A stretch of 63,959 nucleotides of DNA, filler included, from Thermodesulfobacteriota bacterium (lineage in GTDB: Bacteria > DASVDK01), in assembly GCA_036381125.1 (NCBI GenBank). It is 5 parts of 5 records of this genome, joined end to end, with 100 filler letters (N's around TTAATTAATTAA, not from the genome) between each part and the next. Parts side by side here need not be neighbours in the genome. Positions count along the whole stretch, not along the records: positions 38,052 to 55,165 come from DASVDK010000029.1; 4 more parts are not named here. One strand, 5' to 3'. A model generated the notes under the pieces. The model saw only the letters and a program-made list of their open reading frames with translations. It ran no database searches and had not been told where the DNA came from. Positions 45,507 through 50,007 of the stretch are shown piece by piece. Position numbers and translations under genes: made by a program. Position 1 is the first letter of the stretch, and every line of letters begins with the position of its first letter.

Positions 45507-46739
45507 ATGGCGCCACGCGAGGCTCCTGCGCTCCGGGTCGCCGAGGCCCAGGAGACCGTCCTCAACGCCGTCCGGCCCATCGGGACCGAGACGATCGACC
45601 TCGTCTCCGCGCTCTGGCGCGTGCTCGCCGAGGACGTCGTCGCGATCCGCTCGATCCCCCCTGCCGACAACTCGGCCATGGACGGCTATGCGGTCCGCAT
45701 CGCGGACGTCGCCGCGGCGACGCCCGAGCGCCCCGTGATCCTGCCGGTGTCGGAGGTGGTCCCGGCCGGCAAGCGGGCGCGCGCGCCGCTCGAGCCGGGG
45801 CATGCCGTCAAGATCATGACCGGCGCCCCCATGCCGGAGGGGGCCGACACGGTGGTACGGGTCGAGCACACCGACGGCGGCACCGAGCGGGTGACGATCG
45901 AGCGCGCCCCCGAGCCCGGCGAGAACGTCCGCCGGGCCGGGGAGGACATCGAGGCCGGCGACGTGGTGCTTGCCGCCGGGACGCTCCTGCGGCCCGCGGA
46001 GCTCGGCCTGCTCGCCTCGGTGAACCGGCCGCGCGTGCTCGTGACCGTCCGCCCCCGCGTCGCGATCCTCGCGACCGGCGACGAGGTGGCCGACCTCGGC
46101 CACCCCGATGCGGCGCTCGAGGACCGCGTCCTCGACGCCAACTCCTACTCGCTCGCCGGGCAGGTGCTCGAGGCGGGCGGGGTGCCGCTCCTCCTCGGCG
46201 TGGCGCGGGACGACCGCCGCGTCATCGGCGAGCGGATCGAGGCGGGCCTGCGAGCCGACGTGCTCGTGACGTCCGGCGGCGTCTCCGTCGGCGACTACGA
46301 CTACGTCAGGGAGGTGCTCGACCGGCTCGGGCTCGAGCGGCTCTTCTGGAAGGTGATGATCCGGCCGGGCGGGCCGCTCGCCTTCGGACTGCTCGGCGGC
46401 CGCCCGGTCTTCTGCCTCCCGGGCAATCCGGTCGCCTCCATGGTGACCGCGGAGCTCTTCCTGCGGCCGGCCCTGCGCAAGATGCTCGGCCACCCGAACG
46501 TGGCGCGCGAGACGGTCGTCGCCACCCTCACCGAGCCGATCTCCGCCCGGAAGGGCTACCGGACCTTCGTGCGCGCCGTGCTGCGGCGCGAGCGCGGCGA
46601 GCGGATCGTCTCGTCGACCGGTCCCCAGGGCTCGGGCATCCTCCGCTCCATGAGCCGCGCCAACGCCCTGATCGTCGTCCCGGAGGACGTCGAGCGCTAC
46701 GAGGCGGGGGCGCGCGTGGAGGTGATGCGGCTCGAATGA
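45507..46739 (+). CDS. moeA: Molybdopterin molybdotransferase MoeA
   Basis: NSAMDGYA, IMTGAP, TGDE, SGGVSVGDYD, LPGNPV, QGSG. Confidence 0.95.
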   Translation: MAPREAPALRVAEAQETVLNAVRPIGTETIDLVSALWRVLAEDVVAIRSIPPADNSAMDGYAVRIADVAAATPERPVILPVSEVVPAGKRARAPLEPGHAVKIMTGAPMPEGADTVVRVEHTDGGTERVTIERAPEPGENVRRAGEDIEAGDVVLAAGTLLRPAELGLLASVNRPRVLVTVRPRVAILATGDEVADLGHPDAALEDRVLDANSYSLAGQVLEAGGVPLLLGVARDDRRVIGERIEAGLRADVLVTSGGVSVGDYDYVREVLDRLGLERLFWKVMIRPGGPLAFGLLGGRPVFCLPGNPVASMVTAELFLRPALRKMLGHPNVARETVVATLTEPISARKGYRTFVRAVLRRERGERIVSSTGPQGSGILRSMSRANALIVVPEDVERYEAGARVEVMRLE

Positions 46740-47164
46740 TCCGGATCCGGGAGATCGACCACCTGGTGCTGCGCGTCCGGGACCTCGACCGGATGCTCGC
46801 CTTCTACCGCGACATCCTCGGCTGCACCGTCGAGCGGCGGCAGGACGAGATCGGGCTCGTCCAGCTTCGCGCCGGCCGCTCGCTCATCGACCTGGTCCCG
46901 GTGGACGGCGTGCTCGGGCGGAGGGGTGGGGCGCCCCCGGGGCGCGAGGGCCGCAACCTCGATCACCTCTGTCTCAAGGTCGAGCCGTTCGACGCCGAGG
47001 CGATCCGGACGTACCTTGCCGCGCGCGGCGTCGCGGCGGGGGAGGTCGCGTCCCGGTACGGCGCCGAGGGCGAAGGCCCGTCGATCTACGTCGCCGACCC
47101 CGAGGGCAACACGGTCGAGCTGAAGGGGCCGCCCTGGCCGGCCGGGGCGACTCCGTCGGACTAG
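46736..47164 (+). CDS. VOC/glyoxalase family protein
   Basis: IDHLVLRV, NLDHLCL, YGAEG, DPEGNTVELK. Confidence 0.9.
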   Translation: MIRIREIDHLVLRVRDLDRMLAFYRDILGCTVERRQDEIGLVQLRAGRSLIDLVPVDGVLGRRGGAPPGREGRNLDHLCLKVEPFDAEAIRTYLAARGVAAGEVASRYGAEGEGPSIYVADPEGNTVELKGPPWPAGATPSD

Positions 47165-47808: not shown

Positions 47809-47848
47809 GGCCAATGCCTGCGCCTGGGGTCGGCATCTGTCTTGGGTG

Positions 47849-48142
47849 TCAAGGCCGAGAGCGGACCGGCTGCCAGGGGCGGCCGGTCTTGACCATGGCA
47901 TTGAGGATGATGACGAACGTGCGCACGCAGGCGGTCAGGGCGACCTTCGTGCGCTTCCCCGCCGCCCGCAGGCGCTGGTAGAGGGCCACGCGGTGGCGGC
48001 GCAGCTGGGCGACGAGGTCGGCCAGGCCGGCCTCGGTGTAGGGGACCCGCCAGGGGCGACCGCCCCCCGGGTGCACGTCGATGTCGAGATGCGCCCGGGC
48101 GATGTCGATCCCGGCGACGACGGCCGCAGCGGCGTTGGACAT
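47849..48142 (-). pseudogene. IS110 recombinase with in-frame internal deletion (97 aa)
   Basis: N-terminal VAGIDIARAHLDI joined to C-terminal YQRLRAAGKRTKVALTACVRTFVIILNAMVKTGRPW. Confidence 0.88.
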
Positions 48143-48177
48143 GGATGATGAGGCCTCCGAAGGGGGTGCCGAGGCCT

Positions 48178-48322
48178 CTCCCCGGCCCCGCCTTGCGGGA
48201 TGCGACCTCGGCGGGTCGCGCATCTGTGCGGGCTCGGCGGGAGGCCCACGCCCGGCGATCCTGGCTGACCCACGGGCTCACGGCCCCAAGGTCTGACGGT
48301 CTACCGGGCTCGGCTCGTTGAC
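48178..48322 (-). ncRNA. Putative IS110 bridge RNA
   Basis: Target loop: GCCCGG/CCGGGC stem, guides GTCAGACCT (48297-48289) and GGGTCAG (48271-48265) around a GGGC/GCCC hairpin. Donor loop: guides ACAGATGC (48227-48220) and GCAAG (48196-48192) around a GCGACC/GGTCGC hairpin. Confidence 0.8.
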
Positions 48323-48338
48323 GCCCCCAAGATACAAG

Positions 48339-48382
48339 GTCTTTCCGTTTTCCAATCTGGAAAATGGATAGACCTGACCCCA
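48339..48382. repeat. REP-like palindrome, interrupted by IS110 (rest of left arm at 47825-47833)
   Basis: Reconstructed empty site TGGGGTCAGGTCT-TTCCGTTTTCCA-ATC-TGGAAAATGGAT-AGACCTGACCCCA. Confidence 0.82.
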
Positions 48383-48399
48383 TGGAACGGTCTCGCGCC

Positions 48400-48961
48400 T
48401 CCGCCGCCTCGCCGCCAGCCGACCCGCAGCAGCCACGTGCGAGCGCCGGCGACGACGCCACGCGCCGCCGGCGCGGCCGACGAGCACGGGTCCATGCCAC
48501 GGAAGTCCGGCCGGTGCTTCCTCACGTTCTCGAGCACGTAGACGAGCGCGTGGTGTACTTCGCGGGGTGTCGCGAGGTCGCGGCGATGGTAGCGGTCCCC
48601 CCAGACCCTGCCCCGTCGCCTCGACGAGCAGGTGGACGTGATTGCTCTGGACGGAGAAGTGGCAGATGCGGAAGGCGCGCCCGCGCTGCGCGAGGCGAAT
48701 CGCCTCGCGCAGGGCACCAAAGGCGCGCATGCCACGAAGGCTGGGGAGCCCGGGACGCGCCCGAAGCGTGATGTGCGAGGGGTGCCGGGCGTCGTGATAG
48801 GGCCGGGTTCGGTGCGCGACGTTCGGGCGTTGGCCCTGGCGCTTGCGCCCGGCGCCCGGACGCCGGCCGCCCCAGGTGATGGGGAGCGACAAGGCGAGTT
48901 GCCGCCGGTCGACACGGCGTGGCCGGCGGCGACTCGCCGGCAGGGTGGCGAGTTGCCGCAT
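48400..48961 (-). pseudogene. REP-associated tyrosine transposase (RAYT-like Y1 HUH), deleted and frameshifted
   Basis: WGGRRPGAGRK, HITLR, FSVQSNHVHLLVEA (HUH); second frame GRVWGDRYH...LVYVLEN (catalytic Tyr region); intervening helix missing. Confidence 0.8.
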
Positions 48962-49291
48962 GAACGACCTTCTCGCGAAGCGGGATCACGTAAACGCGTG
49001 GGAAAGCCGACCGAAGACAGGAGGGGAGAGCCGGGCAGGGCGCGTCGCTTGATTGAGCACTATTCTATCGTAAGTCGATAGGGCAGGCAAGAGGTGATCA
49101 GGCGGGTCCGGTCCGGACGCATCGGTAACAGGTCAGAGCGAGAGAGCCAGGCCACGCAGGACCGGGTCGTCCGGAGACATGGGTGCCGCTCGGGGGGCAT
49201 GGACGTGAACGCCGTGCGCTGGAGGGAGATATCGCCGCCGAGGGATGACCAGGAGACCGGCTTTAGGTTGGTCGCGTGGCCTCGTCGGCGC

Positions 49292-49365
49292 GGGGTCAGG
49301 TCTCGACCCTGGCGAAGGTGGAAACCTGACCCCAACCGGTTGGAAAACGTCGAGGCCTGACCCCG
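49292..49365. repeat. REP-like palindrome plus an extra arm
   Basis: GGGGTCAGGTCTCGACC-N8-GGTGGAAACCTGACCCC, then GTCGAGGCCTGACCCCG. Confidence 0.78.
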
Positions 49366-49490: not shown

Positions 49491-49750
49491 CCGCGCCAAC
49501 GCCCTGATCGTCGTCCCGGAGGACGTCGAGCGCTACGAGGCGGGGGCGCGCGTGGAGGTGATGCGGCTCGAATGATCCGGATCCGGGAGATCGACCACCT
49601 GGTGCCGCTCGCTCATCGACCTGGTCCCGGTGGACGGCGCGCTCGGGCGGAGGAGTGAGGCGCCGCCGGGGCGCGAGGGCCGCAACCTCGATCACCTCTG
49701 TCTCGAGGTCGAGCCGTTCGACGCCGAGGCGATCCGGACGTACCTCGCCG
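49491..49750 (+). repeat. Diverged partial duplicate of moeA 3' end and VOC 5' part (46655-47021) with a 107-nt deletion
   Basis: 49491-49605 = 46655-46769; 49606-49750 matches 46877-47021 with about 6 substitutions. Confidence 0.92.
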
Positions 49751-49952: not shown

Positions 49953-49992
49953 GGGCCGGGTCTCGACCTTCGACAGGGTCGAGACCCGGCCC
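49953..49992. repeat. REP-like palindrome variant downstream of the AKR gene
   Basis: GGGCCGGGTCTCGACC-TTCGACAG-GGTCGAGACCCGGCCC, perfect 16-bp stem. Confidence 0.78.
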
Positions 49993-50007
49993 CGTTGGGG
50001 ATACGGT

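Follow-up and report, generated by a model that had tools for sequence, protein, structure and literature searches.

A decayed IS110-family element with a putative bridge RNA in the head of a dispersed repeat, probably of the TIRYT type

Here we describe positions 47825-48961 of a 63,959-nt stretch of DNA (filler included; hereafter the window) from a Thermodesulfobacteriota bacterium (GCA_036381125.1). They comprise an element of the IS110 family of insertion sequences (IS), the repeat pair that surrounds it and the remnant of a Y1/HUH transposase gene. Our comparisons indicate that this is probably an IS621-type IS110 element that inserted into the head of a dispersed repeat of the TIRYT type, a terminal-inverted-repeat family, and has since become a relic; the adjacent Y1 gene would be merely its neighbour. 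The repeat unit is 24 nt long, GGGGTCAGGYCT followed by TTCCRTTTTCCA, and its head is GGGGTCAG. In the following list P0121 is an intact 317-aa IS110-family transposase, NF033542 is the NCBIfam model for IS110 RNA-guided transposases (cut-off 140 bits), and guides are named after section 7 of PMC11208160.

47825-47831, plus strand: left stub of the interrupted repeat head, TGGGGTC (direct reading)
47832-48336, minus strand: internally deleted IS110-family element, 505 bp including one copy of the core (NF033542 and alignment to P0121)
47832-47848, minus strand: right end of the element, 17 nt, ...ACAGATG followed by the degenerate core CC at 47833-47832 (direct reading)
47852-47847, minus strand: -35 box TTGACA, overlapping the stop codon of the transposase gene (direct reading)
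47849-48142, minus strand: in-frame remnant of the transposase open reading frame (ORF), 97 aa, with the N-terminal 54 residues fused to the C-terminal 45 (ORF, profile and alignment)
48143-48336, minus strand: left end of the element, 194 nt, beginning TGTATCTT and predicted to encode a bridge RNA (fold and comparison with a related genome, G001)
48334-48329, minus strand: -10-like TATCTT within the left end (direct reading)
48289-48297, minus strand: left target guide GUCAGACCU, left-end positions 40-48, its last 6 nt being the left half of the target plus the CT core
48265-48271, minus strand: right target guide GGGUCAG, left-end positions 66-72, the reverse complement of CT-GACCC
48220-48227, minus strand: left donor guide ACAGAUGC, left-end positions 110-117, identical to the element's own right end ACAGATG plus C
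48192-48195, minus strand: probable core-proximal right donor guide CAAG, left-end positions 142-145, read directly as the reverse complement of CT-TG and tentatively assigned
48337-48382, plus strand: remainder of the interrupted repeat pair, made up of AGGTCT-TTCCGTTTTCCA, a loop ATC and the intact inverted unit TGGAAAATGGAT-AGACCTGACCCCA

The correspondence between the left end of the element and its insertion site is the first line of evidence. In the 5' arm, AGACCU (48294-48289) precedes GGGUCAG (48271-48265), with a small hairpin between them, which is the order expected of target guides, and read together the two give AGAC-CT-GACCC, the head of the unit GGGGTCAGGYCT-TTCCRTTTTCCA. When the left end was shuffled with its dinucleotides kept, 5 of 20000 sequences contained both in this order, and 38 of 20000 contained the donor 8-mer ACAGAUGC. 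With the guides held unpaired, the left end folds into two internal loops, each capped by a hairpin; on this constrained fold the sides of loop 1 match the target and those of loop 2 match the element's own joined ends. Section 7 of PMC11208160 places the left target guide of IS621 on the 5' side of the first loop, with both guides taking in the core, and the order, spacing and strand sense of the guides in the window are those described there.

The second line of evidence comes from further copies. Genome-wide counts were taken from G001, a fragmented metagenome-assembled genome (MAG) of 3.3 Mb that is related to the source of the window yet distinct from it, the moeA regions of the two being 68% identical. 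Contig ends of G001 are 87-93% identical to both ends of the element, and the left end in the window is 93% identical over 123 nt to three of them. On the plus strand of the window, all three left-end junctions of G001 read ...GATACA-AG-GCCTTTCCATTTTCCA, and the four right-end junctions, whose outer flanks all differ, each read GGGGTC-AG-CATCTG. The 7 junction fragments thus all lie at GGGGTC-AG-GCCT, the plus-strand AG being CT on the IS strand at both junction types. On that strand the left-end junctions read AGGC-CT-TGTATC and the right-end junctions ACAGATG-CT-GACCCC; these sequences define the target as AGRC-CT-GACCCC and place a CT core at either junction type. The G001 copies have this same core at either junction, without terminal inverted repeats or a target duplication beyond the core. 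All 9 junctions that we inspected, 2 in the window and 7 in G001, fall at one position of the repeat head. One additional right-end junction, at the same position of the repeat and with a different flank, was found in a contig of X4, one of four metagenome runs (X1-X4) whose contigs we compared with the window; here, as at the four right-end junctions of G001, the GGGGTC stub precedes the right end of the element. X2 and X3 have the same junction and were therefore counted as one locus and not as independent events.

The guide and the repeat also vary together. Between the window and G001 the left ends differ at 9 of 123 positions (hand count), and one of these differences changes AGACCU to AGGCCU: the left target guide of the G001 copy is GUCAGGCCU, which matches the repeat variant AGGCCT that predominates there, just as AGACCU in the window stands beside AGACCT. 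Among 60 relatives of G001 searched with the IS DNA, one was positive, namely G001 itself. The first-pass annotation had asked where other members of this IS110 clade are inserted. The G001 and X4 junctions answer in favour of the repeat; a search of 54 genomes with P0121 gave 4 matches, none of them in the motif, and there is therefore no evidence for repeat use by the IS in other phyla. A more distant full-length relative, 59% identical to P0121, was seen at locus L281 (G099:C71, 114-1300), where it interrupts a different palindrome (...CTCTCCCGCTTGCGGGAGAGGG) at CCCC-CT-CTCCCGC. The right target guide of this relative, GCGGGAGAG, is complementary at 9 of 9 positions to its own right flank CT-CTCCCGC, and its donor guide, ACAGUUGC, corresponds to the right end of this same element, ACAGTTG.

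The first-pass annotation had called the element simply an IS110. The family assignment holds; what the window contains is a 505-bp relic and not a full element. Its sole ORF (48142-47849) matches NF033542 at both protein ends only (E 6.5e-8, 32 bits), and it aligns to P0121 in two blocks, residues 3-53 (88% identity) and 273-315 (77%). Of the 317 residues, 1-54 and 273-317 are left, and from this two-ended alignment ~219 codons (55-272) have therefore been lost in frame. P0121 itself has both PF01548 and PF02371 and scores 222 bits with NF033542. The nearest named relatives in a plasmid collection are ISMno7-family transposases at ~52% identity. A Pfam search of the window element detected neither the DEDD domain (PF01548) nor the serine domain (PF02371). 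Since the recombinase domains are gone and the model score is only 32 bits, we class the window copy as a deletion derivative and not as a working member. The core dinucleotide CT is retained at its left end; the right end has CC instead, which we read as later decay. Contigs of X2 and X4 part from the window at 47981 and 47986, and their loose ends, translated by hand, appear to run on into the deleted part of the transposase gene, which hints at full-length IS copies elsewhere.

Based on these findings, we propose the following scheme. An IS621-type element with a bridge RNA in its left end would have inserted into the head of GGGGTCAGGYCT-TTCCRTTTTCCA. In the target loop, the guides AGACCU and GGGUCAG would specify AGAC-CT-GACCC, with CT as the crossover core, and in the donor loop ACAGAUGC and ...CAAG would specify the joined element ends ACAGATG-CT-TGTATC. 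The proposed targets for the left-end RNA acting with a P0121-type recombinase are AGACCTGACCC and AGGCCTGACCC. In an excised circle, the joined ends may form a promoter, TTGACA-N17-TATCTT, from which the guide RNA and the transposase could be expressed. Later decay would then have removed transposase codons 55-272 in frame and changed one core copy from CT to CC, leaving a window copy that would be immobile by itself and may not be mobilisable at all. The repeat would belong to the TIRYT-type terminal-inverted-repeat family with its GGGGWSAS head, and the enzyme spreading it would likely be a transposase of ~300 aa that combines a Y1 domain with a helix-turn-helix (HTH).

The repeat can be recognised in the window by its fold. 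Joining 47825-47831 to 48337-48382, that is, removing the element, gives a near-perfect 53-nt hairpin of -24.5 kcal/mol (DNA parameters), against a mean of -4.2, a standard deviation of 1.9 and a best value of -13.4 in 500 mononucleotide shuffles. The first-pass annotation had described this restored hairpin, its position at the 3' end of a Y1 remnant, the recurrence of its motif on the other side of that gene and the spelling of this motif by the target guides, and our results bear out all four. The 12-mer head of the unit recurs exactly at 49292-49303 and with one mismatch at 49322 and 49353; the window thus has 2 exact and 2 one-mismatch matches, all of them in the interval 48370-49364. When up to 2 mismatches are allowed, the 12-mer is not enriched across the window (9 matches against a shuffle mean of 7.85).

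Beyond the window the repeat is abundant, as the first-pass annotation had expected of a genome-wide count: G001 has 152 copies of the 12-mer head and 0 of the reversed control. Most of the G001 repeats follow closely after genes and form tandem arrays of 25-nt period. Five of 60 relatives of G001 have at least 10 heads (152, 45, 15, 11 and 10; the motif-rich relatives are G001, G018, G045, G025 and G026), and the others have 0-3. Dispersal of the window repeat is suggested also by the depth of contigs of X1, probably the source run of the window, which sums to 358 in the bin 48365-48435 against ~10 in neighbouring bins, and 4 X1 contigs carry GGGGTC joined to AGGTCT without interruption. A search of species-representative genomes with a gapped hairpin pattern gave at least 118 loci (L001-L118), with many phyla among their titles. 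Their outer 12 bp do not vary; the inner stem does, with compensating changes in its two arms. These hairpins, with outer stem GGGGTCAGGYCT and a lineage-specific inner stem, come from at least 118 species representatives, and some genomes have several with the same inner stem, such as four within 8 kb of L097. One of the listed loci, L032, shares the inner sequence of the window, and its genome is G001. A tblastn search of the 118 listed loci with the window Y1 frames and the IS remnant gave nothing at E <= 1e-3. Clustering of the ORFs within 1.5 kb of the hairpins revealed no common neighbour gene, the largest cluster covering 6 loci and a Y1 cluster 3. A literature text search for the motif gave nothing but primer-like coincidences among the papers listed.

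Which enzyme, then, owns the repeat? The sequence GGGGTCAG heads all units, be they from the window, G001 or the listed hairpin loci, and it fits GGGGWSAS, the sequence shared by the terminal inverted repeats that flank TIRYT (TIRtron) Y1 genes and form moderately abundant repeat families according to section 16 of Di Nocera et al. 2013 (PMC3733652). The same motif is given in section 20 of Quentin et al. 2018 (PMC6006769), a paper in which TIRYT genes make up subclass 2.1 of TnpA-Y1, have HTH C-termini and are equated with RAYT group 1 (citing Bertels et al. 2017). A profile of the Y1 clade found beside the relic (A1) gave at most 50 bits in 50 hairpin genomes, and its weak matches were TIRYT-type genes. 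The proteins of TIRYT type in hairpin genomes are ~290-340 aa long, start with ...RPLRIE..YH.T.RGN and carry the HUH motif NHYHL; PF01797 was found in 3 of the 3 tested and a C-terminal HTH (HTH_23) in 2 of these 3, and the two scanned with NF047646 (cut-off 80 bits) scored 74-89 bits. At 7 of 28 Y1+HTH loci in hairpin genomes, GGGGTCAGGTCT and its inverse bracket the gene, the two copies having 20-24 nt of repeat in common. Among 60 G001 relatives, 12 have a TIRYT-type gene (threshold E <= 1e-20), and at 10 of their 32 TIRYT loci the motif or a one-mismatch variant, altered alike on both sides, adjoins the gene; 5 of these 10 are bracketing pairs, including all 3 loci in G025. The 24-nt repeats of these relatives, such as GGGGTCAGGTCT-TGACATTTGACA, share 20 of 24 letters with the G001 unit by hand count, as was counted for the terminal repeat of L291. 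Some TIRYT genes have head variants altered alike on both sides: GGGGTCTGGTCT / AGACCAGACCCC at L287, GGGGTCAGCCCT / AGGGCTGACCCC at L297 and GGGGTCAGACCT / AGGTCTGACCCC at L313. The 118 or more hairpins look like gene-less pairs of TIRYT terminal repeats.

Three further features lie beyond the interrupted hairpin.

48403-48961, minus strand: Y1/HUH transposase pseudogene of a divergent PF01797 clade, with a 25-codon deletion and frameshift
49291-49365, plus strand: cluster of three repeat units, one forward and two reverse, on the 5' side of the Y1 remnant
49953-49993, plus strand: degenerate member of the hairpin family (GGGCCGGGTCTCGACC...), behind an aldo-keto reductase gene

The 53-nt hairpin abuts the 3' end of the Y1 remnant. 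Residues 2-97 of P0002, an intact Y1 homologue of 219 aa, align to 48904-48617 in one frame with 82% identity, and residues 123-208 align to 48621-48403 in a different frame; residues 98-122 are gone. Matches of the remnant to NF047646 are weak (E 0.0046 and 0.0079), and P0002 itself scores 48 bits, below the cut-off. The clade is large, with 1728 proteins at E <= 0.001 among 2665 candidates, and its members are ~218 aa long with a WGGRRPGAGRK-type N-terminus and PF01797. Relative to a second copy in X1 and X3, the start of the remnant has 61 extra bases (48906-48966), which seem to be a small duplication in the window copy; the second copy of this 5' region is diverged and, by hand reading of the loose end, starts with an intact MRQLALSL. 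The surroundings are themselves rearranged. A partial second copy of the 3' end of moeA and of the start and middle of a glyoxalase gene lies 2.8 kb downstream of the original (49491-49750 against 46655-47021): 49491-49611 is 98% identical to 46655-46775 over 121 nt, 49604-49750 is 96% identical to 46875-47021 over 147 nt, and ~99 nt are absent between the two duplicated pieces. The moeA/glyoxalase copies bracket a DUF2059 gene, the IS relic, the repeats and the Y1 pseudogene. This neighbourhood is probably a decaying, rearranged stretch that collects insertions, in which the Y1 pseudogene is merely a neighbour. Of the hairpin at 49953-49993, we note that it has a 16-bp stem and stands directly behind the aldo-keto reductase gene. 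The end of this gene and the hairpin together are 90% identical over 147 nt in contig C243 of G001, where the hairpin head is GGGGTCGGGTCT, one letter off the repeat head.

The first-pass annotation had read the locus as a trio, in which the adjacent Y1 gene, of the WGGRRPGAGRK type, spreads the repeat as its cognate repeated extragenic palindrome (REP), and the IS110 is a parasite of this system. That the IS110 is programmed against the repeat agrees with the guides, the covariation and the 9 junctions; the assignment of the repeat to the neighbouring Y1 appears improbable to us. Its appeal lies in the window, where repeat clusters stand on both sides of the Y1 remnant and include all close motif copies of the 64 kb, and where, on the gene's strand, forward units lie upstream and a reverse unit downstream, as around a bracketed Y1 gene. 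The homologues speak otherwise. At the best 80 of 402 confirmed homologue loci, taken from metagenome contigs (46-62% identity to P0002), the exact motif is found at none and a one-mismatch motif at 3, which is about chance by our own estimate, so that the expected flanking motif at Y1 homologues did not materialise; these loci also have no flanking inverted repeat longer than 12 nt, and their DNA similarity to the window ends within or near the coding region. None of 400 G001 relatives encodes the neighbour Y1 type at E <= 1e-30, despite the inclusion of the five motif-rich ones, and thus the clade and the repeat were not found together in related genomes. In 60 relatives, P0002 matched nothing but other Y1 genes, at 24-33% and in no case with the motif, and an NF047646 scan of G001 gave nothing. 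Elsewhere, the motif brackets a different Y1 clade. The closest homologue, P0001 (82%), ends in WGQGPGQDLTPSPEVRSR in place of the clade tail GLI..E.PR; within this C-terminus, WGQ and QDLTP are the peptides that the repeat head and its inverse would give when translated in two frames. Among the 120 homologues listed, P0001 is the only one with such a repeat-like tail. It is a possibility that the WGGRRPGAGRK-type clade uses GGGGWSAS-type repeats in this one lineage.

It could also be argued that the repeat-like stretches of the left end are captured repeat, for example from an imprecise excision, and not guides, the choice of site falling to the protein or to the hairpin structure. In a palindromic target such as this one, guide-like and repeat-like sequences resemble each other, and an unconstrained fold pairs both stretches with each other. 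Against this stand the IS621-like order, spacing and strand sense of the stretches (PMC11208160, section 7), the single-base covariation with the G001 repeat variant, and the L281 relative, whose stretches differ at the same places and match its own target and end; we regard capture as very unlikely. That an IS relic happens to lie in a hairpin without any target preference would fit the single copy in the window, but with all 7 G001 junction fragments and the one in X4 at the same repeat position, and with the result of the shuffle test for the target guides, coincidence hardly deserves consideration. Several observations nevertheless weigh against our preferred reading, that of an IS621-type element in a TIRYT-type repeat. 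On the side of the RNA, the left end, when folded without constraint, does not surpass its shuffles (z = -0.78), the two-loop structure depends on guides forced to be unpaired and on a comparison of 3 sequences, an Rfam search of the left end gave no match, and at L281 the left target guide and the flank beside the element agree in no more than 6 of 9 positions. No empty site for the window locus was found among the metagenome contigs compared. As to the repeat, the window yielded no TIRYT gene, and neither did G001 and G018, which are the richest in the motif among the relatives and are both fragmented MAGs; a TIRYT homologue (E <= 1e-20) is present in only 3 of 5 motif-rich relatives as against 9 of 55 others. 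The repeats flank the Y1 pseudogene on both sides, with all close motif copies of the 64 kb within ~400 bp of it, and the terminal WGQGPGQDLTP of P0001 could be encoded by the repeat head, as judged by hand back-translation from the protein.

The locus offers a clean natural example of bridge-RNA programming, the guide and the host repeat having changed together by a single base. It is also useful as a data point for target rules, with a right guide of 7 nt and a CT core, alongside the L281 relative that has other guides and lies in another palindrome. A bolder version, which we think improbable, takes the guide address to be the near-invariant repeat head in hairpins of at least 118 species from many phyla; if the address does occur letter for letter in these species, the landing pad would extend far beyond the present host. 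In this version the relic, whose guide RNA is complete and whose two ends are present, could be a mini element, non-autonomous and mobilised in trans by full-length copies, at which the contigs of X2 and X4 hint.

Among known systems, the REPtrons of E. coli and Pseudomonas (RAYT with REP/REPIN) resemble the locus in that the Y1 gene of the window has repeat clusters on both sides and the repeats appear to be dispersed in the genome, as judged from G001 and from the X1 depth. They differ in that the units in the window begin with GGGGTCAG and have no GTAG-type foot, a REP feature as described in PMC6006769 and PMC3733652, and in that the flanked Y1 belongs to a divergent clade whose relatives lack the repeat. 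With TIRtrons (TIRYT) the locus has the following in common: GGGGTCAG fits GGGGWSAS, units occur singly, as dimers and in clusters (PMC3733652, PMC6006769), and the same 12-mer brackets ~300-aa Y1 genes with a C-terminal HTH in other genomes. In contrast to TIRtrons, the G001 units lie mostly in 25-nt tandem arrays and neither the window nor G001 yielded the gene; moreover, Quentin et al., where they treat subclass 2.1, report no REP-like structures near its genes (PMC6006769). The terminal-inverted-repeat sequences in Figure 9 of Di Nocera et al. and the additional files of that paper might contain the exact 12-mer. In the titles and abstracts of the literature searched, we found no paper that links IS110 to a TIRYT-type repeat; our reading would make this link, and leaves the known working of such elements unchanged.

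IS110 elements that target REP-like repeats are already known, namely IS621, ISPpu9 and ISPpu10. The first-pass annotation had suggested an independent, non-enterobacterial pairing; the pairing does lie outside the enterobacteria, but it is not the first of its kind, as ISPpu9 and ISPpu10 of Pseudomonas putida are in print. They too are non-enterobacterial IS110 elements with many copies in one repeated intergenic palindrome (PMC12288879, PMC8450116, bioRxiv 10.64898/2026.03.19.712850), and their published descriptions set them apart from the present element by another host lineage and another repeat family. IS621 of E. coli, also in the IS110 group, is the system whose bridge RNA was described by Durrant et al. 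2024 (PMC11208160) and Hiraizumi et al. 2024 (PMC11208158), and its occurrence in REP-type repeats goes back to Choi 2003 as cited in PMC11208160. The window element differs from it in its target, a GGGGWSAS-type repeat head, in its right target guide of 7 nt and, in this copy, in the loss of two thirds of the recombinase gene. The likeness, drawn from the description in PMC11208160 and not from the IS621 sequence, begins with the guide RNA, which lies in the left end and whose loop 1 has the left target guide on its 5' side and the right one on its 3' side, the donor guides being in loop 2; it extends to a CT core, a very short right end and a repeated extragenic palindrome as target.

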